A DNA stretch of 64,000 nucleotides from an uncultured Halobacteriales archaeon. GTDB lineage: Archaea; Thermoplasmatota; E2; JACPAO01; JAHFTW01. The notes beneath the pieces are model-generated. The model made no database searches, had not been told where the DNA came from, and was given only the letters and a program-made list of their open reading frames with translations. Shown here in pieces: positions 28,301-50,312 of the stretch. Both the position numbers and the translations under genes were made by a program. The stretch lies in NCBI GenBank assembly GCA_964627625.1, contig CAZVJB010000011.1, forward strand, positions 12,175 to 76,174. The letters run 5' to 3'. How positions within the stretch are numbered: position 1 is the first letter of the stretch; each line of letters begins with the position of its first letter.

Positions 28301-29280
28301 ACTTGGTAAGCGTACGTCTGTCCGCTAGTCAACCACATGTCGTCGTAACTTGTCGCGCCCGCCGCCATCGTGTTCAGCAGGCTAAAGGGTGCGCCGCCGA
28401 CGCTGCGATAGATGCGCCACTCCGTAACCGGTTGGGCTCCGTTGTCCACGGGGGTCCAACTGAGGCGGACGGTGTTGTCGCCAATGGCCTGGGCGGAAAG
28501 GCCAACTGGCGGACTTTGCCACATGCGAAGGGGATTGCCAGCGCCGTTTCCGCTGTCGCCGACGGTCCATTTTCCCGTCCCCGGTTGGGTGTTGCTCGTG
28601 CCAGCGGCCAGGTAGTCGCGAGGCGTTCCGGGCCCCACCGGGGTTGGTTCTCGCTGGGCGTTGGCCATCATGCCAAGCCATTGGTCACCGTCCTTCGGCT
28701 GAAGTGCCGGATTCCCCCAGAGCGTGCGCTTGACCGTGTACTTGAGCTCGTTACAGACCCAGGTCGGAGCGGTCAGGAAATTGGTGCCTTGACCCGATTC
28801 GGGCGGGCTCCCCGCATTGCTGTACGGATAAAGTTTGGAGTTGATGAAGCCCGTCGCGAATTTAGCCGTGGCCGCCGCGTGATATTGCTGCCCATTGGCC
28901 ACCGTGAAGTCAACGGGGTAGCGCACGGCCTCGCCAACGTTGGCGGCCGCTGTCGGATCAAAGAGCGGGCTGGGCGACCCTACTTTAATCCAGAAGTAGA
29001 TGTTGTCTGTGTCCGATGACATGCCGAGCCGAATCAATTCGGCCCTCGCGGCATCCGGACTGCCGGGGCTTCGGTCGTCCACCGGTTCGGAGGCACCTGG
29101 GGTGCCGTCCGGGTTCAGGGCCATGACCTCGAACCCTGTGCCATTGCCCGCCGCCGCAAGTTGCGCGCACACCGCCATGGCTCCCAGAAGAAGCAGCGGT
29201 AGAAGTGCGGCCTTGAGAATGACGTCAACACGGAGCTTTCCGGTTATGCAAGCGGGTTCGACAGGACTCAACGTGGCCAC
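25399..29280 (-). CDS. Large cell-surface protein (1293 aa) with signal peptide, FN3-like and PKD domains and a C-terminal TM anchor with basic tail
   Basis: The N-terminus LLPLLLLGAMAVCAQLAAAG is signal-like. A PKD signature is present (SVTAWSWNFGDGYTS), plus FN3-like repeats (TAPSTLAVGTPTATSLKLTW). The C-terminus is AIMAAVAAAVLVVAGVAAVMF followed by RIRRPAAS. Confidence 0.7.
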   Translation of the reverse strand: MATLSPVEPACITGKLRVDVILKAALLPLLLLGAMAVCAQLAAAGNGTGFEVMALNPDGTPGASEPVDDRSPGSPDAARAELIRLGMSSDTDNIYFWIKVGSPSPLFDPTAAANVGEAVRYPVDFTVANGQQYHAAATAKFATGFINSKLYPYSNAGSPPESGQGTNFLTAPTWVCNELKYTVKRTLWGNPALQPKDGDQWLGMMANAQREPTPVGPGTPRDYLAAGTSNTQPGTGKWTVGDSGNGAGNPLRMWQSPPVGLSAQAIGDNTVRLSWTPVDNGAQPVTEWRIYRSVGGAPFSLLNTMAAGATSYDDMWLTSGQTYAYQVSGVNCPQFPIQPGANVAGESLSSASVSVTPDFKPTAPSTLAVGTPTATSLKLTWTASSGDCPAVGCTPAGSGASGVQGYAMYRGASGAETFIMNIPAGGACASTPCEYTNTGLTTGATYCYYLRAYDGYTGGPNLSPGTPESCGTPSEPPAAPAAVADTFAVDANALFSAAACAVGIPAAPGGPYKGVLCNDQDAAGDAIQAILVTSPTQTTPGGSFTWDADNKGGFTYRAATDYCGFAGDSFQYQLKDVSTNTMLNTATVQLNIACPPAAVADTFSATINSLFTAAPCAANVPSATGGPYKGVLCNDQDTANHAILALLVSGPSHVASGGSFSWNSDNKGGFVYQADTDYCGATGDSFQYQLKDATTNTLLNTVTVQLDIGCTVNQAPTAACGVTTAPPFAPGQSIAFSSAGSSDSDGTIASWSWTFPSGTPTSASDASTMASWAIAGTFAVTLSVTDDDGATSPFATCNVTVTNTPPTATEDYYVAIKNGYLDTMTQSRPSILANDVDAEANIIGIDLNSCPAPFMPGILWPVNLEPPNAGHFVFTPNPGFVGDATFSYKARDALGLVSDSCATVTIHVQENRAPSTAFTASPTTVRVGEPATFVDASSDPDAGDSVTAWSWNFGDGYTSYGRSPIHIFGIVGTYSTCLQVTDIWGTTGKTACRSINVIAPSGGSNPGPPNGPGTPPGNNPNPANPPTATPLKVDAGLDQTVAEGAVVKLQATITGTTTATTTWTQTYGPKVQLINANTQTPSFTAPLLTGSAVVLYFELTAEDGSRSGTDGIMVALESITPSPVAKVAAQGQADVGQIVILDGAQSGGGNGDSLSFKWTQWEGPAVIIDDATTAKATFTMPDASGETLRFVLEVSDGHSSSIAVQTITVRATSEAAGPSEPAPEASAPIAGPDSVPTTLVEASGGPTFAIMAAVAAAVLVVAGVAAVMFRIRRPAASISASSPEQLVHDMARR

Positions 29281-29432
29281 CGTTCCGGGTCAACCAAATC
29301 GCATGCAGGTCATCTCTGTTTTGGGCTTTCCATGGTGCATGCAAAGCGTTGGAGTAGTGGACCAGGAAACAATGTGACCAAAAGCAACATGTAGGCGCAG
29401 GGCCTTGGTTTCGCCGGCGTGGTTGGATAGTC

Positions 29433-31406
29433 ATGCATTGTCTACGCGGGGCTGGACGGTTGGCCTGCGTTGCTCTACTGATGGTTTGGGTGGCGTCAAC
29501 CGTAGAGGCGGCGATTACGCCCATTTCCCCGGCCGATCCCGATGGCGCGCTAGTCTTCGCTCAAGCCATGGCACCAGGTGAGGCTTCCACGACTCTCGTC
29601 ACAAGCGCGAAGTGGATCCATTATGGGAGCTGCAACACGATGGTGTCGCCCACCATCAAGTGCCCCGCCCCTGACGGCCCATCGGCGCTTGGTCCCGCGG
29701 GCTATGCTGATGCGGCCCTCACGGAACCGTTCGGCATTCGGGACGGCCGGTTGGTGGCCCTCATGACGACCGGATTGGCGGCCGCCGCCGACCAACCCCA
29801 GAGCCGTGTTCAATCCAGCGACAACCGCGACCGCATCGGCGATGTCTTTGATGTAACCATTATCCAAATTGATTTGGAGGTACCAAGCGGCCACGACTGC
29901 TTGGCATTCGATTTCCAGTTTCTGACGGAGGAGCCGCAGCGACCGGAAGGCCAAGTCACAACTGGGGACATTTTCCTTGCCGAATTGGACGCCAATACTC
30001 TCGGCGTCTCGAAGACCGGATACCTTGCGCAGCAGAATTTTGCAGTCGCACGCGTTGAGGACAAGCCTGTTCCTGCCACGAGTTTCACTCTACCGTTCGG
30101 GACCAAGCCTGCCTTGCTCAACCCCGGCAATCCAGATCAGGGGACGGTTTACGACCGCGGCTCGCAGGTTTGGACGGCGCGTACGGTCATGGCACCCGCG
30201 GGCGGCGCCCACCGCCTGTACCTGAGCTTCTACGAACGTGGCCTGGCCACACAGGACAGCGGCGTCCTTCTGGACAAGCTCGACACCTTCTCGTCGACGC
30301 AGCGGCCCTGCGGCCCGGAGGCGCCCTTGGCCAAGGTGCCGCCGCGCATTGCCTTCACGGCATCCCAGGCTCGAGCCTGTGGCATGAATTCCGTAATCTT
30401 CGAGGACAACAGCACCACCGGCAGCGAGGCTCTGCATTCGTGGGAATGGGATTTCGGTGACGGCGCGACCGGAAATGGCCAGAAAACAAACCACACGTAT
30501 GCCAGCGGGGGCTCCTACAACGTAACGCTGATTGTAACCGATCAGGGCGGCATGTCGAACTCGACTACGGTCCCAATCCGCGTCGAGGGTGAAGTGCGGT
30601 GTTCGAACGGTGTCCCTGAACAAGGCCACGACGTGCCCGCCAACACGCCGGCCGAGCAATCCCGCGGGACGACGGGACTCGGCGGCGGGCAGTGCGTTGG
30701 TGATCAGGACGGCGCTGCAGGGTGCGGGTCGGGAGGAAAGGGCGCCCCCGAGTCTCCAACAGCCGCAGGCGACTTCCTCACAAAGCATAGCCGCGACCCG
30801 ATTCCAGCACTGCTTCTTGTTCTGGCTGTTGGGTCCGGCTTAATGGCGCTTCGCCGCTGGTGGCCTGCGATTGGGGGCCTATACGCACGACTTGTTGGCC
30901 GCGACCTACTCGACCTCGAAACGCGACGGCAAATTGTCGATTTCATCCGAGCAAACCCGGGAAGCTCCTACCTAGCCGTCGCAAAGCGCCTCGAGAAGGG
31001 GCGGGGGGCAGTAGCGTACCATTTGCGCGTCCTCGTGAAGGGCGGCGCGCTCTATCGCCACGAATGGCAAGGCACAGTCGGCTACCACATAGCTGAGCCA
31101 GGTACGAATCCAGCACACTTCGACGCAAGCGCCGCCTTGCGCTCGAAGACTGCATGGCGCCTCCTGCTCCGGCTCGCCGAGTGTTCAGCCGCGGCCCCGC
31201 CGGCGCTATCCGCGGCGCTTGGCGTCTCGCGAAACACGATCCGCTACCACCTGCGGCGCTTGAGCAATGCGCGGCTAATCGAGGTGGCGGATGGGTCCAC
31301 CCGTCGTGAATACCTCTTGACGCCCCTGGGGCGGAGCTGCCTCCAGGAAGCGCATGGCGGGCATCCCACTTTCGTGCCGTCGTCCGACGCCAGCCAGCAC
31401 GCGTGA
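29433..31406 (+). CDS. Membrane-spanning one-component regulator: signal peptide, extracellular PKD domain, single TM, two cytoplasmic wHTH domains
   Basis: Signal peptide LACVALLMVWVASTVEAA. PKD signature SWEWDFGDGATGNGQKTNHTYASGGSYNVTLIVTD. TM helice IPALLLVLAVGSGLMALRRWW. Then ETRRQIVDFIRANPGSSYLAVAKRLEKGRGAVAYHLRVLVKGG and ALGVSRNTIRYHLRRLSNARLIEV. Confidence 0.65.
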   Translation: MHCLRGAGRLACVALLMVWVASTVEAAITPISPADPDGALVFAQAMAPGEASTTLVTSAKWIHYGSCNTMVSPTIKCPAPDGPSALGPAGYADAALTEPFGIRDGRLVALMTTGLAAAADQPQSRVQSSDNRDRIGDVFDVTIIQIDLEVPSGHDCLAFDFQFLTEEPQRPEGQVTTGDIFLAELDANTLGVSKTGYLAQQNFAVARVEDKPVPATSFTLPFGTKPALLNPGNPDQGTVYDRGSQVWTARTVMAPAGGAHRLYLSFYERGLATQDSGVLLDKLDTFSSTQRPCGPEAPLAKVPPRIAFTASQARACGMNSVIFEDNSTTGSEALHSWEWDFGDGATGNGQKTNHTYASGGSYNVTLIVTDQGGMSNSTTVPIRVEGEVRCSNGVPEQGHDVPANTPAEQSRGTTGLGGGQCVGDQDGAAGCGSGGKGAPESPTAAGDFLTKHSRDPIPALLLVLAVGSGLMALRRWWPAIGGLYARLVGRDLLDLETRRQIVDFIRANPGSSYLAVAKRLEKGRGAVAYHLRVLVKGGALYRHEWQGTVGYHIAEPGTNPAHFDASAALRSKTAWRLLLRLAECSAAAPPALSAALGVSRNTIRYHLRRLSNARLIEVADGSTRREYLLTPLGRSCLQEAHGGHPTFVPSSDASQHA

Positions 31407-31509
31407 GAGGCATGGCCTGCCGTTTCGTAGCTCGCCAATCCAGGGATGCGGCGCCACCGGGCAACAAACAGCCCAAAAGGTCCTTTCATGCGAGCTTTTT
31501 CACATCGTC

Positions 31510-33372
31510 ATGCAACGGGCGACGGTAAGTGTTTCGCGGCGCGTCAGCGGCGGCCTGAGGGGGCGGCTTCTGGCCGCGTTGTCCGTGCTTGGGGTTGCCC
31601 TGTTCGTCCTGCCAAACGTTCAAGCTCAGCCGGCAATCATCATGGACGATGCCGTTGCATTGGCCGTAACTTCATTCGGCAGCCTCGGAAGTGAATATGG
31701 CGGGATCTACACTTCGCCGTCGAACTGCAATACGGACGCCATGCTCGTTCGGGAACTCGCGACCAACTTCGACGCGCTGTGCGGAACCAATCAGGGCGAG
31801 GGGTGGGGTTTGGCCTACGACCTGGGCCTCGCGACCGACACAAGTTGCTTTGCGCAGGCCAGTTGGAACCCGACGACGAGCATGCCCGAGCCGACGGTGG
31901 TTTCGTTCACCGGCGACGCGACAAGTGCGCAATGGATCCTCCAGTGCGGTACCATGCAAGTGACACAAACGCTTGGCCCGGTTGACGGGCACCCCGGAAT
32001 CTTTCGCGGCGACGTGCACTTGCTCAACGTAGGCCCCGGCATAAGCCATCAGGTCATGTACCGACGATTCATGGGCTGGGGCCCCTTTGCAACGGGCTGC
32101 TGCGGCACGTTTACTGACCTCGCTACATTTCCCCTGGCAGCACCGCCCCCGGAGTCCCTGGTTGAGTCCGGGCTTGCCAACGCCGTAACGGGTGACCCCG
32201 GCGTGGAGCCAGACTATTGGATTCAAGGTCCCCCCGGCGGTTCGGATATTGCGCGGTTCTACCAACAGAGGCAGAGTGTCGTCTGGACCCTACAGTTCGG
32301 GACGTTCTTGCCAGGCGCTTGGGAGTCCTTCACGTTCTACTACGGCGTGTTGCCCGATGAAGCAACGGCTCGGGCACCACTTGCGGCGCTTGGAGCACAG
32401 GTGTACAGCCTATCCTATCCAGGGGCCGGGGTGGCAGGCGGCACACCGTCGGCGCCGAGCGGCCCGGTCGCACTTTCGGCACTGGCGGACCTGCCCCACC
32501 CAATTGGCCCCAACCCGCCGCCGCCCCCCGTCGCCGGCTTGGATTGGACGTTCACGGACTCCGGCTGCGCAACGCCAGTGAAGTTCACCGACATATCGAC
32601 TCCCGCGTACGCTCCAATTGTCGCCTGGGAATGGCATTTTGGCGACGGCGCATCCAGTGTCGAGCAGAACCCTGAGCACATCTATCGGGCCCCGGGCGAA
32701 TACGGCGTCGTACTCATCGTCATTGATGAGAACGGTTTATCGGCCTCGTTCGGTACAACAATTGTCGTGCCGCAGCAGCGGACCTGCGAAGCGGGCGGCC
32801 AATCGAACGAGACCCAACCGCGACCACCGCACGACGGCGCGGACGAGGATTTGCAAACGGATGCCGAGGGTGACGGAATACCTGATCGGCTCGATAACTG
32901 CCCTTCTGTCTCAAATGCTGCCCAGCGCGACACTGATGATGATGGCCAAGGCGATTCGTGCGACCAGGACGCCGACAACGACGGCCTTGCCGACGACGAG
33001 GACAATTGTCCCCTCATCGTGAATCCTGGCCAAACGGACTTTGATGGCGACGGCTACGGAGACGCTTGCGATGCGGACGCCGACGGCGACAAGGTAAGTG
33101 ACGGCATGGACAACTGCCTGCACCTGGCCAATCGTTCACAGACCGACGAGGATGGAGATGGAATTGGCGACGACTGCGAAATCCACATCGCGCTCATTTC
33201 GGATGCGGCCGCAAGGCCAGGCAACTTGCCCAATGAGCGGCGCGGCGTCGAAGTGGCATCTCGGCCGGACAACAATCCTATGTCATCCGGTCTGGCAATC
33301 GGGGTCAGCCTTGGAGCCGCGGCCCTGTTAGCGGTTGTGGCGCCGCGCATGCGGGGCCGCAAGCAGCAGTGA
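31510..33372 (+). CDS. Surface protein with signal peptide, PKD domain, thrombospondin-type-3-like Ca-binding repeats and C-terminal TM anchor
   Basis: The start is moved to the in-frame ATG at 31510, giving MQRATVSVSRRVSGGLRGRLLAALSVLGVALFVLPNVQAQP. PKD signature AWEWHFGDGASS...YGVVLIVID. Repeated DxDxDGxxDxxDNC units follow (DGDGIPDRLDNCP, DDDGQGDSCDQDADNDGLADDEDNCP, DFDGDGYGDACD, DEDGDGIGDDCE). The C-terminus is LAIGVSLGAAALLAVVAP followed by RMRGRKQQ. Confidence 0.65.
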   Translation: MQRATVSVSRRVSGGLRGRLLAALSVLGVALFVLPNVQAQPAIIMDDAVALAVTSFGSLGSEYGGIYTSPSNCNTDAMLVRELATNFDALCGTNQGEGWGLAYDLGLATDTSCFAQASWNPTTSMPEPTVVSFTGDATSAQWILQCGTMQVTQTLGPVDGHPGIFRGDVHLLNVGPGISHQVMYRRFMGWGPFATGCCGTFTDLATFPLAAPPPESLVESGLANAVTGDPGVEPDYWIQGPPGGSDIARFYQQRQSVVWTLQFGTFLPGAWESFTFYYGVLPDEATARAPLAALGAQVYSLSYPGAGVAGGTPSAPSGPVALSALADLPHPIGPNPPPPPVAGLDWTFTDSGCATPVKFTDISTPAYAPIVAWEWHFGDGASSVEQNPEHIYRAPGEYGVVLIVIDENGLSASFGTTIVVPQQRTCEAGGQSNETQPRPPHDGADEDLQTDAEGDGIPDRLDNCPSVSNAAQRDTDDDGQGDSCDQDADNDGLADDEDNCPLIVNPGQTDFDGDGYGDACDADADGDKVSDGMDNCLHLANRSQTDEDGDGIGDDCEIHIALISDAAARPGNLPNERRGVEVASRPDNNPMSSGLAIGVSLGAAALLAVVAPRMRGRKQQ

Positions 33373-35562: not shown

Positions 35563-37443
35563 ATGCCAGACCCAGCCCTCCTTCCCGGATCCACGGCGGG
35601 TCGAATTCGATGCGCGGCAGGGCCCGGAACCGGGAAGACGTACCAGCTGAAGCAGCGCGTTTCCAAGCTTCTTGAGAAGGCGCCCGACAAGGGCCACCGG
35701 ATATTCGCGGTAACCTTCACTCGCCAGGCGGCTGCGCAGCTAAAGGGCGACTTGACACAGATTCAGGGCGCAGAGGAACTGGTTGCATGTACGCTCCACT
35801 CGCACGCGTTCTCTGTCCTTGGCAGCGATTCGGCAATTGCAGCCCTGGGCCGTCACCCCCGACCCTTGTTTGACCACGAGCTGCCTGCCTTCCTGCATGA
35901 TGCCGCAGCGTCTCAGGGTTCCGTTGCAGCGGCCAAGGAACGGCTCCATGCCTTCGACAGCATGTGGGCCAGACTTCAAACGGAGGAAATCGGCTTTCCA
36001 ACAAACACGGCTGACAAGGAGTTCAATGATTTCTACGTCCAGTGGATGGTCCTTCACCGTGCCATGGCTATCGGGGAACTGATTTCACTAGCCGTCAGAT
36101 ACCTGCGCAATAACCCGATGGCACCCGCCTATGACACGTTTGATCACATTCTCGTCGACGAATATCAAGACTTGAACCGCGCGGATCAGGTCCTCCTCCA
36201 GCTCCTGGCATCCAAGGGCCGCATGATGATTGTGGGTGACGACGACCAGTCCATCTATTCGTTTAGATTCGCAAATCCGGACGGCATCCGGCAATGGTTG
36301 GATGGTCAGGCCCCGCCAAAGGAAGATTATCAATTGGTTGTATGTCGGCGATGCGATGGGCGCATTGTGGACGCCGCCAACCTCTTGATTGCCAGGAACC
36401 CTAATCGCTTGAAGGGAGATTTACGGCCCTTGGCCGAAAAAGTAAACCGTGGCGAAATCAGCGTCCTTCAATGGAATACGCTGGAGAACGAACTGGACGG
36501 TTTGGCGGAGGGAATTGACCGACTTCTGAAGGCCGGAAAGGTGCCGCCGGATGGCCGCATCCTCGTCCTTGTGCCCCGCGCTGATTTTGGAAGCAGGCTG
36601 GCCACCAAATTGAATGCGATGGGGAGAACCGATGTTCGCTTCCACGGCAAGCCCAACTGGGCGGGCCTTGAGATGCAACGCGCGCTATCTCTGCTTTCCC
36701 TGGCAGATAACCAAGATGACGCGGTGGCCCTGCGTGTTTGGGTTGGCCTGGGGAGCGCCGACTACCGGCGCGCCGCCTATGCCAAGGTCATCCACCATTG
36801 CGTTCAGACGGGAGCCACCCCTCAACAGGTGCTGCGAGATGATTCCCTATGCCGGGTCACTCTACGAATTGCCGCGATTCGAGATCGATATGAGGAGCTT
36901 GAGGGCGCCCTACGCCCTCTCCTCGATATGGGCCGTGCACAGCGGCTGGCAGAGTTGTTGCCGCTCGACGGCCCAACCGCGACACTTGGAGCCGCGCTAC
37001 GCGACGTTGAAGCCACCGCGGATCCCGACCAGACCCTTTCCGAGCTTCTGCGCGAATACGTGACTGCCCAAATCGCGACGACCAAAGACGCTCGCGTAAA
37101 CATCATGACTCCCCATGCATCGAAAGGACTGGAAGCACATACCGTCGTCGTCAGCGGGCTGGTGAACGGCGTTCTTCCCTCAGCGCCTGCCCCCACATCA
37201 GTGGCAGACGTGGCCCGCCTCCAGGAGGAACGGCGTCTTATGTACGTCATCGTAACGAGGGCCAGAGAGCGTCTGATTCTGTCTTCCTTTCAGAAGGCCA
37301 CGCGCGGCGAAAATCGGGACCTCCGGTTGAATCTGGTCGGCAATTTCTATTACGTGAACACGGTGGCCAGCCGGTTCTTGGAGGAACTTGGTCTACCAGT
37401 CAAGTCTTGGCAGCGTGGAACCGCTTGGATTGAAACGCTCTGA
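35563..37443 (+). CDS. UvrD/Rep-family superfamily-1 DNA helicase
   Basis: The SF1 motifs are present: AGPGTGKT (I), AVTFTRQAAAQLKGDL (Ia), ILVDEYQDLN (II), MIVGDDDQSIYSFRFA (III), RRLMYVIVTRARERL (VI). Confidence 0.75.
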   Translation: MPDPALLPGSTAGRIRCAAGPGTGKTYQLKQRVSKLLEKAPDKGHRIFAVTFTRQAAAQLKGDLTQIQGAEELVACTLHSHAFSVLGSDSAIAALGRHPRPLFDHELPAFLHDAAASQGSVAAAKERLHAFDSMWARLQTEEIGFPTNTADKEFNDFYVQWMVLHRAMAIGELISLAVRYLRNNPMAPAYDTFDHILVDEYQDLNRADQVLLQLLASKGRMMIVGDDDQSIYSFRFANPDGIRQWLDGQAPPKEDYQLVVCRRCDGRIVDAANLLIARNPNRLKGDLRPLAEKVNRGEISVLQWNTLENELDGLAEGIDRLLKAGKVPPDGRILVLVPRADFGSRLATKLNAMGRTDVRFHGKPNWAGLEMQRALSLLSLADNQDDAVALRVWVGLGSADYRRAAYAKVIHHCVQTGATPQQVLRDDSLCRVTLRIAAIRDRYEELEGALRPLLDMGRAQRLAELLPLDGPTATLGAALRDVEATADPDQTLSELLREYVTAQIATTKDARVNIMTPHASKGLEAHTVVVSGLVNGVLPSAPAPTSVADVARLQEERRLMYVIVTRARERLILSSFQKATRGENRDLRLNLVGNFYYVNTVASRFLEELGLPVKSWQRGTAWIETL

Positions 37444-37579: not shown

Positions 37580-38452
37580 CTATCCTGCAACGCGTCGTGC
37601 CGTTGGAACTTCCGCGCCGAATTCGAAGGCTGGAGGAACGTAGTTTGACCAGTTTGGAATGGTATCCGGCCGACGAGTAATGTATGACATGAGTTGATGC
37701 ATCAAGACAAAGAGCGAATGCTCGCCCACTTCCCATGTGGATAGGTGGTCCGGGTATTGGGCGCGTTGATCGGCCTCGCGTGCCCCCAATTTCGTCCGAT
37801 ACTCGGAGCCGATTTCGCCGAAGTTCGATACCTCAAAGTAGGTGCCGCCTCGAGCCAGGGCCTTGCCAAGCACGCAGACAAAGTCAAGGCGGTCTGGAAT
37901 GGGAATTCCCTGCTGAAGGTCGGCCAGCCAGGCATGGAGTTGCGGAGCATCGGGTCCGCTAAAGGCAAACAGCCCGCAGATGCTCTCGGTAAGGGCCGGC
38001 TTGCCCACGAATTCGTGGGGCGCGGCACGCAATTGGGTCTTCAGCTTGCGCACCTTTTCGACGACCGCCTTCAGTTCGCTACGTGAAAGGTTGGTCTTGA
38101 CCTCAAAAGTGGCGGAAACGGCGTCAGCTGTGAGCAAGGCGCTAGCTTCGTTCTCATCGAGGGGCGCATGGTTGAGGCGGTCGAAAATGACGATGTCCTG
38201 CTGCGATGTAAACTCCGCTGCGGATGCGAGAACGATGCCCGTTGCGACGCCAAACCGGGCGGGAAGTCGCTTTCGGAAAAACTCGCGCAAGATTTCCTCA
38301 CGGCTTCGACCCAGCTCCCCAGGCGCCCTCAGACGCGTGAGGCCCGCGGCTTCGGCGTCGCGACGCATGTTCTCCGCCGCAGTTCGGATGAGTTCGTGGA
38401 CCGTCACACAGCCGGCAACGCGCCTGACGTTATGGACCCGCTGCCAGCACAA
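37580..38452 (-). CDS. Hypothetical protein with possible PD-(D/E)xK nuclease-like core; convergent with the helicase gene
   Basis: QQDIVIFDR ... ATFEVKTNLS gives a hydrophobic-strand Asp followed by an E-x-K, compatible with restriction-endonuclease-fold motifs II and III. The spacing of ~27 residues is longer than typical. Confidence 0.4.
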   Translation of the reverse strand: MCWQRVHNVRRVAGCVTVHELIRTAAENMRRDAEAAGLTRLRAPGELGRSREEILREFFRKRLPARFGVATGIVLASAAEFTSQQDIVIFDRLNHAPLDENEASALLTADAVSATFEVKTNLSRSELKAVVEKVRKLKTQLRAAPHEFVGKPALTESICGLFAFSGPDAPQLHAWLADLQQGIPIPDRLDFVCVLGKALARGGTYFEVSNFGEIGSEYRTKLGAREADQRAQYPDHLSTWEVGEHSLFVLMHQLMSYITRRPDTIPNWSNYVPPAFEFGAEVPTARRVAG

Positions 38453-40013: not shown

Positions 40014-40319
40014 CGCCCAAGATGCTTCCAGCCAAGGTATGGTTAAAGGTTACGAGGACTGCGAAAATTGCGGCCCAGATTGGTAGATAGGCCCCTTTGC
40101 GGGGGAGGTCACTCCATGTCATTGGCGACGCATATTGCGTTCGACTCGATAAATGCGGGTAAGAGGTGAGTGAATGCGTAGCCGCCGTTGGATTTCGGCT
40201 ACCTGTCAGCGCGAACGGATTGCCCTTAGACGCCGACGACGCCCGGAGCCAACGGTCTCGAATACTTCCGCTTCGGTCCCGAGAGCATATTTAAGCCGAG
40301 GCAAACTCCAATCAGTAGG

Positions 40320-42173
40320 ATGGGACGCGATTACGCGGTCGAAATCGATGCCCTACCGGCGACCTACGGGGAGGCTGTGGGCCGCAAATACTCGAAGGAG
40401 GACATCGAGGCTTTCCGCGCCACCTTGGCCCACCCGCTCGTAGTCACCGGTGTCGGCGGCAGCATTGCGGCCTGCGAGTTGGCGGCCTCTCTGCACCGCG
40501 AATTTACGCGTTTACCGGCGCGCGTCGCATCGACGCTTCAAATGGCCGAGGAAGGGGTTCTACAAGGCGAGTCCTGCGTCGTCATGACCGCCAGCGGCCG
40601 CAACAAGGACGTCCTGCATAGCTTCGATGCGGCCGCCCAGACGGGCGCTGCCGAGCTGCTCATCGTTACCGCCAATGCCGATTCGCCGATTGCCCAGCGC
40701 GCCGAGAAACAGGGCTACCCCCACGTCTTCGACATCCAGTGCACCATACGCAAGGACGGCTTCCTGGCTACAAACACTCTGTTGGCAACCTGCACGCACG
40801 TTATTCGATGTTGGGCGGAGGCTTGCAACCTCGATCCCACTTTGCCAGCCACAATCGAGGCGCTCCTCGGATCCACATTCGCCGCCGCGCGCAAGGCGGC
40901 TCAACGACAAGCCAACGCGGTTTCGGGGCGGCCGATTTTCCTGGTCCTACACGCCGGAAATGGATCGTCCGGGGCAATCGATTTCGAGGCACGCATAAAC
41001 GAAGGAGGCCTTGGAACCGTCCACCTCGCCGATGCACGAATGTTCGCCCACGGCCGCCACAACTGGCTGGCAGCTCACCTCGACGAAGTGGCGGTGATTG
41101 CATTTGGCGACCAGCGCAGCCGCCGCCTCCTCGATGCCACACTTGGGCTACTGCCAAAGAAAGTCCCGCAACTGAAGCTTTCGACCACCGACGACTCCGC
41201 AGGCCGGCTCCGTTCCATCATCTCCTCAATGCTTCTGACTGAATCGCTCGGCCACGAGCGCGGCGTGAATCCAGGTCGCCCAATCGTTTCCAATTGGGGC
41301 CGCTCCATCTACAGCCTTGGCCCCAAGGGTGTCAGCGCCACCCACGAGGCCCACGCAAAGGTTCCTCCCGCACCAGCACAAGCGCTCGGCCGCCAGAAGG
41401 CTGACCGTGCGCCCCATGTGGTGAAGGGCCTCGTCCTCGACGTAGACGGCACGATCCTTGAACGGCGCGAGCGCCGACGCGCCCCGCCCGCAGGAATAAT
41501 GCAGGAGCTGAATCGCCTCCTGGGCGAAGGCTGTATCGTCGGCTTTGCAACCGGGCGGGGAAAAAGCCTCCACCACCAGATATTCAAGGGACACATCGCC
41601 GAGAAGTACGCCAGCCAGGTGGTGCTTGGCTACTACAACGGTACCATCTTGCAATCCTTCAGCGACGGAGACCCCAAACTCGGCGACCCTGATCCTTTGC
41701 TTGCTCAACTCAAGGTCGCGCTAGAACGACACAACGATCCGCCATGGTTCGACATCGAGGACCGGCCGACACAACTCACTGCAAACGCCCGGAACCCTGG
41801 AAACGCCATGCCACTGGGAGCGCTCGTTCAAGCATTAGTTCACGAACTCAAGCTCCCGCTGGCCTTCGGGCACAGTACCCTCGGCCTCGATATCTTTCCA
41901 GCGTCCGCGGGAAAGCCGCGAGTGGTGGAGGCCGTGGCAAAGAAGGCTGGCATCAAAGCGGATGACGTGGTCCGCCTCGGCGACATGGGGGCCATCAATG
42001 GCAATGACTTCCCCATGCTCAACCATGCCTCGGGGTACACGGTTTGGCTAACGACCCCCCACGGGCAGGCAGGCCACCTTGCATCCCTGCCGACTCTACG
42101 CGGTCCTCAAGCGGCCTTGGTGTTCCTGCGTACGCTGCATGGCCCCAACTCAAAGTCGCGGCGGAGCGCCTGA
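40320..42173 (+). CDS. Double SIS (phosphosugar-binding) domain protein fused to a C-terminal HAD-superfamily phosphatase domain; first gene of a five-gene overlapping operon
   Basis: SIS-1: LVVTGVGGSIAACELAASLH...CVVMTASGRNKDVLHSF...AAELLIVTANADSPIA. A second SIS-like unit follows (RPIFLVLHAGNGSSGAIDFEARI). HAD motif I is VKGLVLDVDGTIL, and the C-terminal motif IV is RLGDMGAINGNDFPML. Confidence 0.7.
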   Translation: MGRDYAVEIDALPATYGEAVGRKYSKEDIEAFRATLAHPLVVTGVGGSIAACELAASLHREFTRLPARVASTLQMAEEGVLQGESCVVMTASGRNKDVLHSFDAAAQTGAAELLIVTANADSPIAQRAEKQGYPHVFDIQCTIRKDGFLATNTLLATCTHVIRCWAEACNLDPTLPATIEALLGSTFAAARKAAQRQANAVSGRPIFLVLHAGNGSSGAIDFEARINEGGLGTVHLADARMFAHGRHNWLAAHLDEVAVIAFGDQRSRRLLDATLGLLPKKVPQLKLSTTDDSAGRLRSIISSMLLTESLGHERGVNPGRPIVSNWGRSIYSLGPKGVSATHEAHAKVPPAPAQALGRQKADRAPHVVKGLVLDVDGTILERRERRRAPPAGIMQELNRLLGEGCIVGFATGRGKSLHHQIFKGHIAEKYASQVVLGYYNGTILQSFSDGDPKLGDPDPLLAQLKVALERHNDPPWFDIEDRPTQLTANARNPGNAMPLGALVQALVHELKLPLAFGHSTLGLDIFPASAGKPRVVEAVAKKAGIKADDVVRLGDMGAINGNDFPMLNHASGYTVWLTTPHGQAGHLASLPTLRGPQAALVFLRTLHGPNSKSRRSA

Positions 42174-42175
42174 CC

Positions 42176-43330
42176 GTGCACTCCAACGACGTGAACTCAG
42201 CCCTAGCTCGGCTCCTGAAGGATTTCCCGAAGGACAAGTTCCCGGACGAGATTCGCCGACTCGGGGCCTTGGCCCAATACAAGTACGATGAGTACCAACA
42301 ATTCGCCCCGGGACGGTACTTCATGGAGAGCCTCGTTTCGTGGCTCGGCCGCATCCCCGAGAACCATCGCCAAGCGGCCTTCAACTTTGTTCGCGACCGG
42401 CTTGTTTTCTTCGGCCGCGGTGACATCTACCACTTTGCCCAGGTCGCCTATCAACACCTCATCCGCAGTTTCCTGGTGACTTCGGAAACCCAGGCGCTCA
42501 AGCTACCGATTCACAAGCGCCCCAAGATCGCGCAATCAAGATATTTCCGGGCTCTCGAACGCAATTCCCTCTTCATTGGCCTCAGCGACGGTGCCCGCAT
42601 CGACGACTTTCGCCGCCTTGGAGAGTTGCACAACGACCAAGTCCACTCTAGCTACCACGTAACCCCAGACCGGCTGACAGAAATGATCAGGTCGTGGACC
42701 GATCACCGTGACACGAACGCGGCCGACGTCGCCGCAGAAGGGATTGGCGAAATCTCGGCGATGAAGGTCCGGCGCATCTTCCTGGTCGATGACCTTTCCG
42801 CCAGCGGTACCAGTGTCATCGACTACGACGAACTCGCTCAGAAATGGAAGGGGCGGTACCCGACGTTCATCAACCTCGTGCTGGGCGACGACGTCTACCC
42901 TGACTTGGACCAAGCCAACCTCGAAGTCCACCTCGTGTTCTACGTCGCAACGGATCAGGCGAACGCCGACGTGAAAAGCAAGATTGATACGTTCAACGCG
43001 AAACGAAAAACGGCCGGCAAACTCACGGCGTCCACGGAGATCCTGACGGTCCAGCCGTTGCCCGCGACACTTGCAGTCGGCCAGCAAGTCAATGACTCTC
43101 GGTACCGCGACTTCATCGACGCCTATGACATGACGGGCTCGTACGACAAGAGCATGGCAAAGGGCGGGCCGGATGGCCACCAAAAATGGGGCTTCAAGAA
43201 ATGCGCTCTCCCGATTGTCTTGTACCACAACTGCCCGAACAACACCATAGGCCCAATCTGGATGTACCCCGGTGAGAAGGGCATGCAAGGATTGTTCCCG
43301 CGCGTTCGCCGCCACTGGTGGGACACCTAA
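42176..43330 (+). CDS. Protein with C-terminal phosphoribosyltransferase (PRTase)-like domain and unknown N-terminal domain
   Basis: The GTG start is 3 nt after the upstream stop. The PRPP-loop-like motif RRIFLVDDLSASGTSV matches the hhhhDDhxoTGxT consensus. The ~215-aa N-terminal region is unassigned. Confidence 0.5.
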   Translation: MHSNDVNSALARLLKDFPKDKFPDEIRRLGALAQYKYDEYQQFAPGRYFMESLVSWLGRIPENHRQAAFNFVRDRLVFFGRGDIYHFAQVAYQHLIRSFLVTSETQALKLPIHKRPKIAQSRYFRALERNSLFIGLSDGARIDDFRRLGELHNDQVHSSYHVTPDRLTEMIRSWTDHRDTNAADVAAEGIGEISAMKVRRIFLVDDLSASGTSVIDYDELAQKWKGRYPTFINLVLGDDVYPDLDQANLEVHLVFYVATDQANADVKSKIDTFNAKRKTAGKLTASTEILTVQPLPATLAVGQQVNDSRYRDFIDAYDMTGSYDKSMAKGGPDGHQKWGFKKCALPIVLYHNCPNNTIGPIWMYPGEKGMQGLFPRVRRHWWDT

Positions 43331-45390
43331 TGGCTGGGACACTTAGCAACCCGTTTGCCGAGGGCATTACGGAGCTTATTGAGAGCGACCAGGATTTTGC
43401 AACACTTTTCGAGCCCAGCATCATGGATCGCATCGCCTGGGACAAACACATGAAGGCGCCGCTGACGTACTGGCTCAGTGCGCAAGGCGGCGGCAAGAGC
43501 GCGCTTCTACGCGCCTTCACACCTGGCGTCCTGCAGGCTGCGCGCCGCCGTGGAGAGAACGACCCTCTGAGACAGACACTCGAGCGAATCGGTGCCCTGC
43601 ATGCAGGGAACCTGGTCATCATCGGCGTGCACAGCAAGTGCACCATCAGCTTCGCCTACATCGGAGACCTGAACGTTCCACAGGCACGACAGCGTTCGCT
43701 CTTCTTCGCGCTGCTAAACGCGCGCGTGATCTTGCGCTTCCTGCGGGCCATCTGCGCTTTCCACGAAGCCCCGATGACCGAAGGTCTCGAACGGTTCAAC
43801 TTCAACTTCGGCGAAGAGTTCCACGGCCTGCCGAGCTCCGCACCTCGGTCGGGTACGGGCCGCGAGCTTCTCCTATGGGCATCCAATGCCGAGCGCGCTT
43901 GTCTTGAGAGTATTGAAGGGACGGGGGAATCTGCATCCCCGGACACTTCCAGCCAGTCCTTCGTGGCGCAGCGGGTCTGCGATCCCCGATACTGGTCCTT
44001 CGACAGCAAGCCCGTCAGGGCCAGCTCGATTATCCTCCTTGACGACGCGCAGACGCTAACAGCCGACCAACGTGGCTGGCTTGCCCAAAGCATCACGGAG
44101 GAACGCGAAGGCGCGCGCGTCTGGATGGCGGCGCGCTTGCACGTCATGAGTCGCGCCGCCATTTTCTTCGGCGCGCGAGAAAAGCGGGATTGGCTTGAGG
44201 TTCGTCTTGAAGACTTGTGGCGTAGCAAGGGAGAGGATGATGGAAAGGCCAGCAAGTCCATTGCCGGAAATCGTGCCCAGATCGCATTCCTGACGGCCAT
44301 CGGCGACCGCCGCATCGGCAGGGGAGCGAGCCGACGCATCAAGCATTTCACGGACCTGGTGCAGGACAAATTCGTCTTTCCCGGGTCGGACGACGTGATT
44401 GCCAAGGCGACGGACCGCGTCAAGAAGAGCATCCAAGCCAAGACCCGGGGAGGCCGACGCTTTTCCAAGTGGCTAGAATGGCCCCAAGGCGCCGCAACGC
44501 CTTGGGACACGCTGCTCCGCTGGCGCGCCCTTGAAATCCTCGTCGACCGCGACATGAATGCCGTGCCCTTGAGCATCGAGGAGGTTCTGGAAGTCTCGGT
44601 ACTGCAGGCACGCAACGTAGAAACGGCCGACACCATGCACGCAGCTCATGCCCTCCTCTCGGTTGAATCTCAAGGCGATAAGCAACTGCCGGAGATCCCC
44701 CTCTACTATGGCATCGACACCCTGGCGTACCTCGGCATGGAAAACGTTCAGCAGTTCATCCGCACCTGCCATGTTCTTTACGACAAGGCGTTGGACCAGG
44801 AAATCCGCCGCAACCCCCAAATTCACGTGGACGCCGCGGACCAAGACCGGCTGGTCCGGAATTTGGCAGGTGACCGCTGGAAAGCAATCCGCGAGGATAC
44901 AACAGATGGACCGGAGCTGCAACGCCTGCTATCCTTGATGCTGGACCGCCTACACGTTGAGTTCGAAAAGCCAAACGCGCCGTATGCGCCCGCTCCGGTC
45001 GGTCTCGGCATCCCAGTCGTAGAGTACGAATCACTGATGGACATGACCGTTGACCCCACGAACGCGGCGGTTTCGAACCTTCTTGGGAAAGCAGTGGCCT
45101 ACAATCTTCTCGCGGTGCAAAGCCGTGCGCACAGGAGCGAACCCCACCGAATCTTCTTCCTTAATCCGCTCCTGCTCGTGCATAGTGGGCTGCCCATTCG
45201 CAGCCGCCAGTTCCAAGGCACGACTTTGGGGGAGCTGGCGGATTGGCTCGAGAACGGGTTCCAACCTGCCGACGGCGGGGGCAAGAGCCAGGCCAACCGA
45301 AAGCGCATCGTACGTGTGCCGAAGCTGCCCAATTCAAAGGGCAGCCGTCGCATCGACGAGTTTCACCCGGAGGATGCCGGTGGCCCCTGA
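43330..45390 (+). CDS. Large P-loop NTPase (686 aa)
   Basis: The ATG overlaps the upstream TAA (TAATG). Walker A is LSAQGGGKSALL. A Walker-B-like SSIILLDDAQTL lies ~180 aa downstream, a spacing seen in STAND/KAP-like NTPases. The remainder is unassigned. Confidence 0.6.
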   Translation: MAGTLSNPFAEGITELIESDQDFATLFEPSIMDRIAWDKHMKAPLTYWLSAQGGGKSALLRAFTPGVLQAARRRGENDPLRQTLERIGALHAGNLVIIGVHSKCTISFAYIGDLNVPQARQRSLFFALLNARVILRFLRAICAFHEAPMTEGLERFNFNFGEEFHGLPSSAPRSGTGRELLLWASNAERACLESIEGTGESASPDTSSQSFVAQRVCDPRYWSFDSKPVRASSIILLDDAQTLTADQRGWLAQSITEEREGARVWMAARLHVMSRAAIFFGAREKRDWLEVRLEDLWRSKGEDDGKASKSIAGNRAQIAFLTAIGDRRIGRGASRRIKHFTDLVQDKFVFPGSDDVIAKATDRVKKSIQAKTRGGRRFSKWLEWPQGAATPWDTLLRWRALEILVDRDMNAVPLSIEEVLEVSVLQARNVETADTMHAAHALLSVESQGDKQLPEIPLYYGIDTLAYLGMENVQQFIRTCHVLYDKALDQEIRRNPQIHVDAADQDRLVRNLAGDRWKAIREDTTDGPELQRLLSLMLDRLHVEFEKPNAPYAPAPVGLGIPVVEYESLMDMTVDPTNAAVSNLLGKAVAYNLLAVQSRAHRSEPHRIFFLNPLLLVHSGLPIRSRQFQGTTLGELADWLENGFQPADGGGKSQANRKRIVRVPKLPNSKGSRRIDEFHPEDAGGP

Positions 45391-46504
45391 CGGTTGGCGT
45401 CCTCGCTGGCGCGAAGGCTTCTTCGTCCGTGGATCCGAATTTGAAGAATTTTGGGCTTCGTACCTGGGTGACAGCCGTCGCGTCAGCGTCGTGCATGCAT
45501 TCGGGTTCGACCCGCGCGCCACCCACTTCCTGCCATTCGTTTTCACAAAGTGCAAAACCAAGCCCGAGCGCATCCTATCGTTCGAGCTGAAGTACCCGGG
45601 GGGCCAGAAGGAGATCACGGACCAGGTGGCCGCCAACCGCGCTGCGCTCATGACCGACATCGACAAGACCCACCATGAGGAGACCGACATCAACATTGGC
45701 CGTCCCAAGCATGGAGGAGAGAGCAGTAAGGCCGTGCAGACCCGTGTTCGTCAATTCCTCGAGGCCGGCCAGGACACAGACGTCATCATCGACATCAACG
45801 CCATGCCCAAATCCGTAGCCATGGCCGCCATCAGCACCGCGCTAAGCGTGAGTGATGACGTGGCAGGCAAGCGGGTCCTCAATGTCCACGTCGTCGTCGA
45901 CCACAACCCCCAGCTCGACCAACGAATCCGACAGACCGAGATTAACAAGGACGCGTTCCTGCTTGCAGGTTTCATTGCGGGCTTCGACGTTGAGAACCCG
46001 GAAGAGCGCCCGGGCATTTGGATGCCCATCCTTGGCCGCGGCCGCCTTGAGCAACTCCAGGCGGTAGCCGAACAGACCTGGACCCCAAAAGAAAAGTGTC
46101 CGGTCGTGCCGAGCCCGAGCCAGGATCCCCGCCACAGCGACGAACTCGTGGTCGAGTACGACAACTTCTTGGAGCGCAAGGACGAAGTATTCCGGCAATT
46201 GCCAAACGTCCTTCGCGTGAGCGAGGACAACCCCTTCGAAGCTTATCAGCAGCTCGTGGAGACTATTGCCGAATTCGGCAAGAACTACCAAGTCCTCGGA
46301 GGCTGCCGCGTCCTAGTAACGGCTCACAGCACCAAGCTCCTGAGCCTGGCTGGATTGCTTGCTGTTTATGAGGCAAAGAAGCGTAGCCTATGCCAAGGAG
46401 TGAGTTTTGCCTTCGTCGAAGCCGCCGGCCACAAGGTCGAACCTGGGGAGGAAACCGCGTCCACACCATACTCGCTCTGGCTTGCGGGGGACGCCTATGG
46501 CTAG
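45374..46504 (+). CDS. Hypothetical protein (376 aa), fourth gene of the overlapping operon
   Basis: The ATG at 45374 overlaps the upstream stop by 17 nt. Balanced globular composition, no recognisable motif. The track's longer ORF from 45050 is an upstream extension across the previous gene. Confidence 0.5.
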   Translation: MPVAPDGWRPRWREGFFVRGSEFEEFWASYLGDSRRVSVVHAFGFDPRATHFLPFVFTKCKTKPERILSFELKYPGGQKEITDQVAANRAALMTDIDKTHHEETDINIGRPKHGGESSKAVQTRVRQFLEAGQDTDVIIDINAMPKSVAMAAISTALSVSDDVAGKRVLNVHVVVDHNPQLDQRIRQTEINKDAFLLAGFIAGFDVENPEERPGIWMPILGRGRLEQLQAVAEQTWTPKEKCPVVPSPSQDPRHSDELVVEYDNFLERKDEVFRQLPNVLRVSEDNPFEAYQQLVETIAEFGKNYQVLGGCRVLVTAHSTKLLSLAGLLAVYEAKKRSLCQGVSFAFVEAAGHKVEPGEETASTPYSLWLAGDAYG

Positions 46505-47561
46505 ACTTCCGGCCTCCAAACCGCGTGCGGTCGGAAGTGGCCTCGTCGCCTTGGACGTCCTGCTTGAGAGTGGCAAGAAAACACCCAAAACATACGCGGG
46601 CGGCAGTTGCGGCAACGTCATGGCCATCCTGGCCTGGCTGGGGTGGACCGCCACGCCATGGGCGCGGCTCGGAAAGGACGCGAGCGGCCGCCGTATCGTG
46701 GAAGACCTAGCCAAGCACGGGGTGGACACGCAGTTCTTGGTCGGCGACGCGGGCGGAGGCTCGCCCGTCATCGTCCAAGAAAACAAACGTACTCCCTCTG
46801 GCCAACTCACCCATCGCTTTCATTGGAAATGCCCCAGTTGCGGCAATCCCTACCCTCGTTTCCGTGCCCCCCTGCTGGCCGGCGTCGATGCAGTCATCAA
46901 GGAGACCGGGCACCCCACTGTCTACTACTTCGACCGCGCAACGCCGGCAGGCATCAAGCTTGCACAGGACAGCCGCGAACATGGAGCAACCGTCGTCTTC
47001 GAGCCCAACAGCATTCGCGACGAGAAGCTGTTTGGGCGGGCCTGCACGGTGGCCCACGTGCTCAAGTACAGCGCCGAACGCCTCGATGCCTATCAGGATC
47101 TCCTCGAGCCGGCGAAATTACCAGTCCAGATTGAAACGATGGGACCCGACGGTCTCCAATTCCGCGTTCGGCAGGGGGCCTGGACGCGCCTCCCTGCCTT
47201 CGGCGCTCCCGTTTTCGTAGATGCGGCAGGTTCGGGAGACTGGTGCACAGCAGCGCTCATCAACCGCACCTTCCGGAAGAGGATAAACTGGAAGACAATC
47301 AAAGCCGACGCAATCGGCCAAGGCCTAGCGCGCGGCCAGGCGTTGGCGGCCATCAACTGCGGATACCCTGGAGCACGGGGCATGATGTACCACCTGACCG
47401 CACGGGAAGCGATGGCTCAGGCTGACGCCCTCGTGTCCAAGCGAATATTGTCACCACCGGCCCCTGCGGCCGAGCAGCCGTGGGCCAACTGGAATGTGTG
47501 CGCGTCGTGTGACCACAACGCCGTCATCCCAACCACGAAGAAGCGGTCGGCCAAAACCTAG
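46497..47561 (+). CDS. PfkB/ribokinase-family sugar or nucleoside kinase
   Basis: The ATG overlaps the upstream stop by 8 nt. Motifs: N-terminal VGSGLVALDV, anion-hole-like GGSCGNV, and the C-terminal DAAGSGDWCTAALI matching the ribokinase-family DTxGAGD signature. Confidence 0.65.
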   Translation: MARLPASKPRAVGSGLVALDVLLESGKKTPKTYAGGSCGNVMAILAWLGWTATPWARLGKDASGRRIVEDLAKHGVDTQFLVGDAGGGSPVIVQENKRTPSGQLTHRFHWKCPSCGNPYPRFRAPLLAGVDAVIKETGHPTVYYFDRATPAGIKLAQDSREHGATVVFEPNSIRDEKLFGRACTVAHVLKYSAERLDAYQDLLEPAKLPVQIETMGPDGLQFRVRQGAWTRLPAFGAPVFVDAAGSGDWCTAALINRTFRKRINWKTIKADAIGQGLARGQALAAINCGYPGARGMMYHLTAREAMAQADALVSKRILSPPAPAAEQPWANWNVCASCDHNAVIPTTKKRSAKT

Positions 47562-47702: not shown

Positions 47703-48440
47703 TTATTGTGAAACGCGTGGCAGGCGTTGTCTTTGTGGGACGCTGTAGGTGCGCTGGCGGCCGGGTCTGGCTCGAATGAGCCCGGCGTCCTCGAGTTGTT
47801 GGAGGCGGAACTGCGTGGTGGAGCGGGGCCAATTCCAATTTGTCTTGGCATGGTCGATGATGTTGGATTGTGGCGCGCGTTTGTGCGTCTGGATGAAACG
47901 CAGTAACTCCTCGAACCGCTCGTCGGCGAATAAGAGGCGGCGCTTCCAGTCTCCGGGAGCCAATCCAACCCAAATCGCGGTGCGGTTGCGCCACGTTCGC
48001 GTCGCCACGATGTGCAGCGCCTCCAGATGCGCTACGTAGGCCGCCGTTTGACTAGCGCCCAAACCGACGCGCCTGGCCAGTTCCCGCATCCAAATGCCTG
48101 GGCACTCCTGGATCACTTTGAAGATACGCCTGGATTCAGCCACATGCAAGGCATACTGCGACGTGGATGGGATGCGGCGCGACGCCGCAACTGGCTTGCA
48201 GTGAACCAGGGTGGCAGCACCAACCTTGGCTTGCCAAAGAAGACCCTTGGCAACCAGTTGCCTAACGTGGCCGCCAACAATTGGCCGGCTAAGGCCCGTC
48301 TGCTGCACGATGTGATGCAGGCGCACAGGTTCCGCCTCGGACGCCGCAGCCAAAACGCGCACCTCATCCCCGGCGCGCAACATGTAGCCGCGGCTGCGAC
48401 TCAAATCCGACGCCGCCTGCACGAATCGACGACGACGCAC
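47703..48440 (-). CDS. Multi-wHTH transcriptional regulator (three helix-turn-helix units)
   Basis: Three units: RLHHIVQQTGLSRPIVGGHVRQLVAKGLL; IQECPGIWMRELARRVGLGASQTAAYVAHLEALHIV; IDHAKTNWNWPRSTTQFRLQQLEDAGLI. The last carries the W.WPRSTT..RL..L signature. Confidence 0.6.
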   Translation of the reverse strand: MRRRRFVQAASDLSRSRGYMLRAGDEVRVLAAASEAEPVRLHHIVQQTGLSRPIVGGHVRQLVAKGLLWQAKVGAATLVHCKPVAASRRIPSTSQYALHVAESRRIFKVIQECPGIWMRELARRVGLGASQTAAYVAHLEALHIVATRTWRNRTAIWVGLAPGDWKRRLLFADERFEELLRFIQTHKRAPQSNIIDHAKTNWNWPRSTTQFRLQQLEDAGLIRARPGRQRTYSVPQRQRLPRVSQ

Positions 48441-50239: not shown

Positions 50240-50312
50240 TGGGTCTGACCAGATTTGAACTGGTGATATTCACCATGTCAAGGTGACGTCATAACCGCTA
50301 GACCACAGACCC
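50240..50312 (-). tRNA. tRNA-Val (anticodon GAC)
   Basis: The reverse complement folds by hand into a cloverleaf. Acceptor stem GGGTCTG/CAGACCC with discriminator A. D arm GTCT-AGCGGTTA-TGAC. Anticodon stem TCACC/GGTGA with loop TTGACAT. T arm ACCAG-TTCAAAT-CTGGT. No encoded CCA. Confidence 0.85.

Follow-up and report, generated by a model that had tools for sequence, protein, structure and literature searches.

The known ligands of characterized CARF domains are oligoadenylates, either cyclic or linear, and a PfkB-family kinase acting beside a double-SIS enzyme is known from the fructoselysine kinase and deglycase pair FrlD and FrlB. Among phosphoribosyltransferases (PRTases), the effector of Retron-Eco11 lowers phosphoribosyl pyrophosphate (PRPP) once triggered and brings about abortive infection, and the motif Gx14PNNxP is given as the signature of retron-associated PRTases, both according to PMC12746101. 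The ShosT PRTase disrupts purine metabolism (PMC11961720). Here we describe an operon in which a PRTase, an ATPase and a CARF protein stand together with a PfkB kinase and a double-SIS enzyme. It occupies positions 40320 to 47561 of a 64,000-nucleotide stretch of contig CAZVJB010000011.1 from an uncultured archaeon (the window, to which positions refer unless a locus number is given), and its genes are called G1 to G5. We give about even credence to the reading that the operon belongs to a self-contained conflict system that is both conserved and horizontally mobile and is most likely directed against viruses or mobile elements; in it, the PRTase would be under the joint control of the CARF protein and the ATPase.

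Translation of the open reading frames (ORFs) and inspection of the junctions showed five genes on the plus strand that overlap or abut at every junction. G1 (40320-42173, 617 amino acids [aa]) is the first gene; G2 (42176-43330, 384 aa) starts with a GTG two bases past the TGA of G1 (TGA-CC-GTG); the ATG of G3 (43330-45390, 686 aa) shares the A of the G2 TAA (TAATG); G4 (45374-46504, 376 aa) overlaps G3 by 17 nucleotides (nt); and G5 (46497-47561, 354 aa) overlaps G4 by 8 nt. A public gene call places the start of G4 at an alternative GTG at 45380, giving a protein of 374 aa and an 11-nt overlap with G3. In dozens of homologous loci the same junctions are again tight, with 4-nt overlaps or gaps of 0 to 3 nt, and because of this recurrence we regard the coupling as a conserved property and not as chance. 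An earlier note on this DNA had claimed five overlapping genes on one strand that are translated together; its coordinates and junctions match the sequence, and a co-transcribed five-gene unit is supported. A scan of the operon interior turned up nothing noteworthy that resembles a terminator or a promoter. Upstream, the element ATATTTAA (40287-40294, plus strand), about 26 nt before the G1 ATG, could be an archaeal TATA box as read from the sequence, and would make the transcript leaderless or nearly so; a sigma-70 scan of this region, with a bacterial model applied to an archaeal host, gave no match. The GC content at third codon positions was 0.71 to 0.75 in all five genes, and the rest of the window was alike.

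The predicted effector is G2, in which a divergent PRTase core of type I comes after an N-terminal helical domain. It matches PF24390 (PRTase-CE) with 55.3 bits against a cutoff of 27, over profile positions 4 to 253 of 253, and 466 homologs of G2 were detected. An AlphaFold2 (AF2) model, built with database homologs as the alignment, likewise predicted a type I PRTase fold, and a profile search against PDB sequences gave no match. The PRPP loop L203-DD-F-SASG-S (LxDDxSASGxS) is intact and invariant in 36 sequences, as is the motif G339-x14-P354-N355-N356; the last P of the published Gx14PNNxP is missing in the family, which has PNNS-I instead. G2 also matches the PADLOC models for PRTases of type III-A retrons (PRTase_III-A, expect value [E] of 3.7e-13). 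The name 'PRTase_III-A' might be taken for a CRISPR type III-A accessory, an assignment that we rejected, the model being that of a retron type III-A effector. With the PRTase effectors of such retrons, Retron-Eco11 among them, G2 shares the PRPP loop and the clade motif Gx14PNN. The differences from type III-A retrons are nevertheless clear: G2 lacks the C-terminal winged helix-turn-helix (wHTH) or tail described for Eco11, the operon and its neighbors have no reverse transcriptase domain and no antitoxin, and Rfam found no riboswitch, retron RNA or other noncoding RNA in the window or in seven of the homologous loci. Unlike in the retron and ShosT PRTases, control here would fall to the AAA+ ATPase G3 and the CARF protein G4.

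G3 is an ORC/CDC6-like AAA+ ATPase with a predicted switch or scaffold role. It matches PF24389 (ORC-CDC6-like) with 45.6 bits against a cutoff of 27, over profile positions 13 to 566 of 571, and no solved relative was found when its profile was run against PDB sequences. Invariant in 23 homologs were the Walker A motif (S50..G53xG55K56(S/T)), the Walker B motif (hhD238(D/E)), an N-terminal (R)NPF motif and the arginines R259, R269 and R286.

G4 had been called unassignable in the earlier note, and here the note was wrong: the protein belongs to the CARF6 family of tandem CARF proteins. It matches PADLOC profile PDLC01910 ('CARF6--CARF_CARF_CARF') with an E of 3e-81, residues 11 to 375 covering profile positions 2 to 347 of 348. 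The CARF6 clade is one of those in the CARF classification of 2020. An AF2 model (predicted local distance difference test score of 88, predicted template modeling score of 0.91) showed a tandem, Rossmann-like CARF fold, with Can1 as the nearest structural relative and Csm6, Csx1, Card1 and Can2 also close. The conserved motifs are GFDPR, DISALPR, PSPSxNPR, SExNPFEAY and SSKLLSLG, and the loops GFDPR, DISALPR and SSKLLSLG are compatible with a ligand pocket without naming the ligand. G4 is therefore predicted to be a small-molecule sensor, and as a tandem-CARF sensor it would make the logic of the system ligand gated. It stands alone, with no effector domain in the CARF protein, unlike the CARF effectors of type III CRISPR systems named above and the SAVED receptors of cyclic-oligonucleotide-based antiphage signaling systems (CBASS); also unlike in those systems, the linked enzymes are sugar-phosphate enzymes and not cyclases, and no Cas10 or CD-NTase is linked. 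Two apparent fusions in a representative library, one joining the G4 N terminus to the G5 C terminus (P0231) and one the G3 N terminus to G4 (P0223), were rejected as true domain fusions and look like deletions spanning adjacent genes.

The other two genes encode sugar-phosphate enzymes. G1 comprises a double SIS module resembling phosphosugar isomerases and deaminases (aa ~25 to 330) and a HAD-IIB (Cof-type) phosphatase (aa ~368 to 575), with matches to SIS and Hydrolase_3 in Pfam and to HAD-IIB, NagB-II and GlmS in NCBIfam. A profile of 23 G1 homologs matched in the PDB the NagB-II glucosamine-6-phosphate deaminase 8eol and a 'putative phosphosugar isomerase,' 3hba (E of 3e-7, residues ~25 to 254), followed by other double-SIS proteins (GlmS and an FrlB-like deglycase) and Cof-type HAD sugar phosphatases. 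In GlmS-type isomerase domains the catalytic Glu and His sit in a KLKE...HGP stretch, and E223/E228...H244 of G1, which align with this stretch in NagB-II, are invariant in the 23 homologs. So are the phosphate loops GSGGS and SASGRN.D and all four HAD motifs (D374xD376GT, T411GRG, K532 and G554D...G561ND). G5 is a PfkB-family sugar kinase (PF00294, 47.4 bits), and its profile matched fructokinases and ketohexokinases in the PDB with E values of 1e-16 to 1e-11. Its invariant residues are the dipeptide G35G36, H106 and D242xxG245xG247D248, which makes up the anion hole and includes the catalytic Asp; four Cys found in most homologs form a zinc-ribbon-like pattern, with CxxC at 112/115 and 335/338. 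Because these catalytic residues are invariant, we take both G1 and G5 to be working enzymes. The domains read earlier in the operon (SIS plus HAD, a PRTase-like PRPP loop, a Walker A/B NTPase and PfkB) were all upheld by profile matches, and the residues of the PRTase loop and the HAD motifs proved intact and invariant across homologs.

Two known sugar-phosphate pathways deserve comparison. The ADP-heptose pathway (GmhA, HldE, GmhB) draws on the same three enzyme superfamilies and has the same logic of isomerization, phosphorylation and dephosphorylation, a route that would shift a phosphate on a sugar. However, the G1 SIS module is of the double GlmS/NagB-II type and not a single GmhA, its HAD domain is of class IIB and not the GmhB-like IIIA, and there is neither an adenylyltransferase nor a glycosyltransferase or lipopolysaccharide context. 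The earlier doubt about an ADP-heptose or other cell-envelope pathway was thus well placed, with a nucleotidyltransferase in none of the five-gene loci and glycosyltransferases (GT1 family) accounting for only 2 of 125 flanking proteins. As in the FrlD/FrlB pair, a PfkB kinase is genetically paired with a double-SIS enzyme, a pairing kept in rearranged loci, and G1 retains the catalytic Glu...His stretch and the phosphate loops. Yet G5 scores 20.5 bits with the fructoselysine 6-kinase model NF007321, whose cutoff is 247; G1 matches the FrlB-like 3eua with an E of 4e-4, versus 3e-7 for NagB-II; and G1 joins its SIS module to a HAD phosphatase and lies inside a CARF/PRTase/AAA+ cassette that has no transporter. 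The resemblance to frl lies in the enzyme logic only.

The cassette is rare and moves between bacteria and archaea. A word-seeded search found 24 homologs of G4 among 5.8 billion clusters, and a full hidden Markov model search found 955 representative clusters among 1.84 billion proteins. We assembled 52 loci by a pattern scan, with one genome per species, and searched their ORFs with the five window proteins. All five genes were present together in 47 of the 52, and in 40 of those they lay on one strand in the order G1-G2-G3-G4-G5. Three of the five incomplete loci end at contig ends, one is short of upstream sequence, and one (L033) is degraded. The set is an obligate five-gene unit, and the conservation of its arrangement in other archaea and bacteria, raised as a question by the earlier note, is clear. 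The carriers belong to 10 or more phyla of bacteria and archaea and comprise many Bacteroidota; Alpha-, Gamma- and Deltaproteobacteria; Armatimonadota; Acidobacteriota; Planctomycetota; one cyanobacterium; Firmicutes (Desulfitobacterium); and, on the archaeal side, two Nitrosopumilaceae and one Thermoplasmata metagenome-assembled genome (MAG). Pedobacter, Mesorhizobium, Sphingobium and Chitinophaga are cultivable hosts among them, and loci from metagenomes show the same arrangement as those from genomes.

Departures from the common order are informative. In five alphaproteobacterial loci (L038, L040, L050, L051 and L052) G1-G5 comes first, then a NADAR gene on the minus strand (E of 1e-24), then G2-G3-G4; the insertion lies at ~5950-6870 in the first four, the NADAR gene lies at 3621-4136 in L052, and an XRE-type helix-turn-helix (HTH) gene follows the NADAR gene in the first four, no such ORF being listed for L052. 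Locus L016 has the order G2-G3-G4-G1-G5, and in L028 G5 is inverted. Because rearranged loci keep these groups, we divide the cassette into two submodules, G1 plus G5 and G2 plus G3 plus G4. Other loci carry insertions: an IS630-type transposase lies between G3 and G4 in L023, and in an Armatimonadota MAG (L007:6250-6912) a gene for a 220-aa protein of the dCTP-deaminase/dUTPase fold (PF22769, E of 4e-10) lies between G1 and G2. The C terminus of the latter protein looks hydrophobic. The NADAR and dCTP-deaminase-like insertions act on nucleotides or N-glycosides and would fit a conflict system centered on such chemistry.

The surroundings of the cassette were sampled as 125 proteins, the two nearest on each side in about 50 loci, with Pfam and PADLOC. 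No neighbor is conserved: 133 Pfam families were found, none in more than 4 of the 125 proteins. The commonest were tyrosine recombinases, rve/DDE transposases, type IV secretion system coupling proteins, relaxases, TrbI, type IIG restriction-modification, AAA_21/AriA-like and HD proteins, the last adjoining the cassette in 3 of the ~50 loci. Among the same 125 proteins no transporter, sugar-type regulator, export or self-resistance gene was conserved, and no cyclase family stood out. As to the association with defense islands suggested earlier, the cassette has surroundings of mobile-element or defense type, and defense genes are a minority of the sampled flanks. The cassette was not found on IMG/VR viral contigs, which we count as neutral, and a near-identity DNA search gave no match to plasmids. 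In Pedobacter antarcticus (L002) an HD/dGTPase-like gene borders the cassette on one side and two integrases on the other, with a GmrSD and AAA_15 pair nearby; the HD plus HD_assoc_2 gene (L002:3504-5075) is directly upstream of G1. In L060 a Wadjet-like JetABCD set (L060:7497-13470; JetD_C, an SMC-type JetC and two further genes) directly adjoins a 43%-identical, archaeal-type relative of the cassette, and another neighbor there encodes a protein that has an HFX_2341_N/Csa3_N-like domain. In Nitrosopumilus (L017) a tRNA at 4250-4324 lies directly upstream of the cassette.

In the conflict system that we favor, sensing and effector action would be the task of G2, G3 and G4. G4, whose tandem CARF domains carry no fused effector, would bind a small ligand of a nucleotide or phosphosugar type; G3 would use ATP to convert the state of the ligand into activation of G2, and possibly would recognize nucleic acid as well; and G2 would consume PRPP, attack nucleotide N-glycosidic chemistry, or both, starving replication and leading to growth arrest or abortive infection. 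The second submodule would contribute three activities, namely, a hexose- or ketose-type kinase (G5), a ketol isomerase/deaminase of the GlmS/NagB-II/FrlB type and a sugar phosphatase (both G1), which would make or clear the ligand read by G4, so that a nucleotide cyclase would not be needed. The sharper version of this scheme, in which the kinase and the SIS-HAD protein make a non-cyclase second messenger (a phosphosugar, ketosamine or phosphoribosyl derivative) that is read by the tandem-CARF protein and relayed by the AAA+ ATPase to a PRTase depleting PRPP or nucleotides, we regard as possible and, on balance, unlikely.

In this reading we infer the defense function, along with the direction of signaling, the identity of the ligand and the role of G2 as the killing or arresting step; between a defense system and a biosynthetic module, the two options left by the earlier note, defense is the better supported as a proposed function. 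Several points weigh against the conflict-system reading. We know of no phosphosugar-type CARF ligand, the signal may be made by another part of the genome or be supplied by the invader, and the role given to G1 and G5 follows only from the chemistry of their families and from their genetic linkage. G1, G3 and G5 have no match in PADLOC v2, and defense genes make up 2 to 4 of the 125 sampled flanking proteins per family.

Four other explanations were weighed. The operon might make, under regulation, a nucleoside analog that is antiviral or toxic, with an angustmycin-like logic in which G5 and the SIS module of G1 produce an unusual sugar phosphate, G2 joins a base to it by acting in the transferase direction, the HAD domain of G1 removes the phosphate and so frees the analog, and G3 and G4 regulate the route. 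To this we assign a low probability, as a pyrophosphokinase for activation of the anomeric carbon is absent, export or self-resistance genes are not conserved with the cassette, and rearranged loci part G2 from G1 and G5. G2 moreover bears the signature of the retron-effector clade, a tested member of which depletes PRPP (PMC12746101).

An ancillary module also looks improbable. Here G4 would sense cyclic oligoadenylates or other cyclic nucleotides made by a type III CRISPR or CBASS system located elsewhere in the genome, or by the invader, G2 and G3 would be the effector, and G1 and G5 would process by-products. The nearest structural relatives of G4 are indeed the cyclic tetra- and hexa-adenylate (cA4/cA6) receptors of type III CRISPR, and G4 has no effector domain. 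Against this, no Cas10, CD-NTase or CRISPR array is present within the window, and neither Cas10 nor CD-NTase is among the 25 most frequent Pfam/PADLOC families of the 125 flanking proteins. The five genes also travel together, which argues for a self-sufficient set.

A toxin-antidote arrangement is harder still to credit. G2 would phosphoribosylate an amine target in the cell or the virus, G5 and G1 would reverse the adduct by rephosphorylation, FrlB-like deglycation and phosphatase action, in parallel with the FrlD/FrlB pair, and NADAR would be a second reversal route in some lineages. Weak matches of G5 to fructoselysine 6-kinase and of G1 to fructose-amino-acid-6-phosphate deglycase speak for it, as does the NADAR N-glycosidase gene inside the five variant cassettes. 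The frl matches, however, lie far under the equivalog cutoffs, and NagB-II and GlmS match better; moreover, the CARF sensor is left with no clear role, and the target is not named. Ordinary metabolism, with the operon serving niche catabolism or salvage of an amino sugar, Amadori compound or nucleoside, is very improbable: G1 and G5 taken by themselves resemble sugar-catabolic enzymes, and niche catabolic operons are also patchy in distribution, but the cassette has neither a transporter nor a regulator of sugar type as a conserved companion, conflict-system families account for three of the five genes, the surroundings are of mobile-element or defense type, and none of the five proteins reaches the NCBIfam equivalog cutoff of any metabolic enzyme.

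Within the window, the operon has neighbors of its own. Just upstream lies a convergent pair consisting of a UvrD helicase resembling GajB of Gabija (35563-37443, PADLOC E of 4e-54) and a DUF6602 nuclease of the PD-DExK/NucC-like kind on the minus strand (37580-38452, E of 3e-28 and 5e-18). GajA is not nearby, and the pair may be a separate two-gene defense module. Downstream, on the minus strand, is a triple-wHTH protein (47703-48440); its weak PADLOC matches to Csa3/CARF3 cover the HTH parts only, and we rejected it as a CARF protein. The helicase, the nuclease and the multi-wHTH protein, all three mentioned in the earlier note, were recovered by profile matches. A tRNA-Val(GAC) gene (50240-50312, minus strand) lies 2.7 kb downstream of the operon, and no att-type repeat of its region of at least 13 nt was found within the window. 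Farther away, a 2940-aa protein (13471-22293) rich in RHS repeats, with fn3 domains and a weak match to DUF6531, is a polymorphic-toxin-like giant, and after it come surface proteins of the PKD, cadherin and TSP3 kinds (25399-33372). One protein of 657 aa in that region (29433-31406) joins PKD to two archaeal winged-helix domains (HTH_20, HTH_24, HVO_0163_N), an unusual pairing of an extracellular-type with a transcription-factor-type domain. The GC content of the window (61%) and the HVO-named HTH families might suggest a haloarchaeal host, which we rejected: the window proteins are not acidic, and among named sources the biotin carboxylase AccC (58662-60188) has its closest relatives in Thermoplasmatota MAGs, with 66 to 68% identity, which places the host in the Thermoplasmatota.

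In light of these comparisons, the operon is a Thermoplasmatota representative of a kind whose component families are already catalogued. Like the predicted immune systems of the PRTase-CE and ORC-CDC6-like families, G2 and G3 score above both gathering thresholds, G3 nearly end to end, and the suspicion that the PRTase and the NTPase are conflict-system parts was borne out, PF24390 and PF24389 not being families of salvage enzymes. Both families presumably derive from the work of Nicastro, Burroughs, Iyer and Aravind (NAR 2023), where such effectors are reportedly predicted to degrade nucleotides. The novelty first claimed for the operon was too strong, as the profiles matched by three of its five proteins go back to previous computational surveys of immunity. 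The searchable full-text literature, a scope outside which Makarova et al. 2020 and Nicastro et al. 2023 fall, contained no description of the cassette and no experiment on a member.

For annotation, five genes that are 'hypothetical' or generically named become one recognizable unit, and the cassette is directly testable, with cultivable hosts and invariant residues for mutants. If it is a defense system, a CARF sensor is joined in it to sugar-phosphate enzymes in place of a nucleotide cyclase, and this would represent either a new kind of immune signal or a new control of a nucleotide-starving effector. A non-cyclase messenger, if true, would be a new class of immune signaling chemistry and would give CARF domains a new class of ligand.

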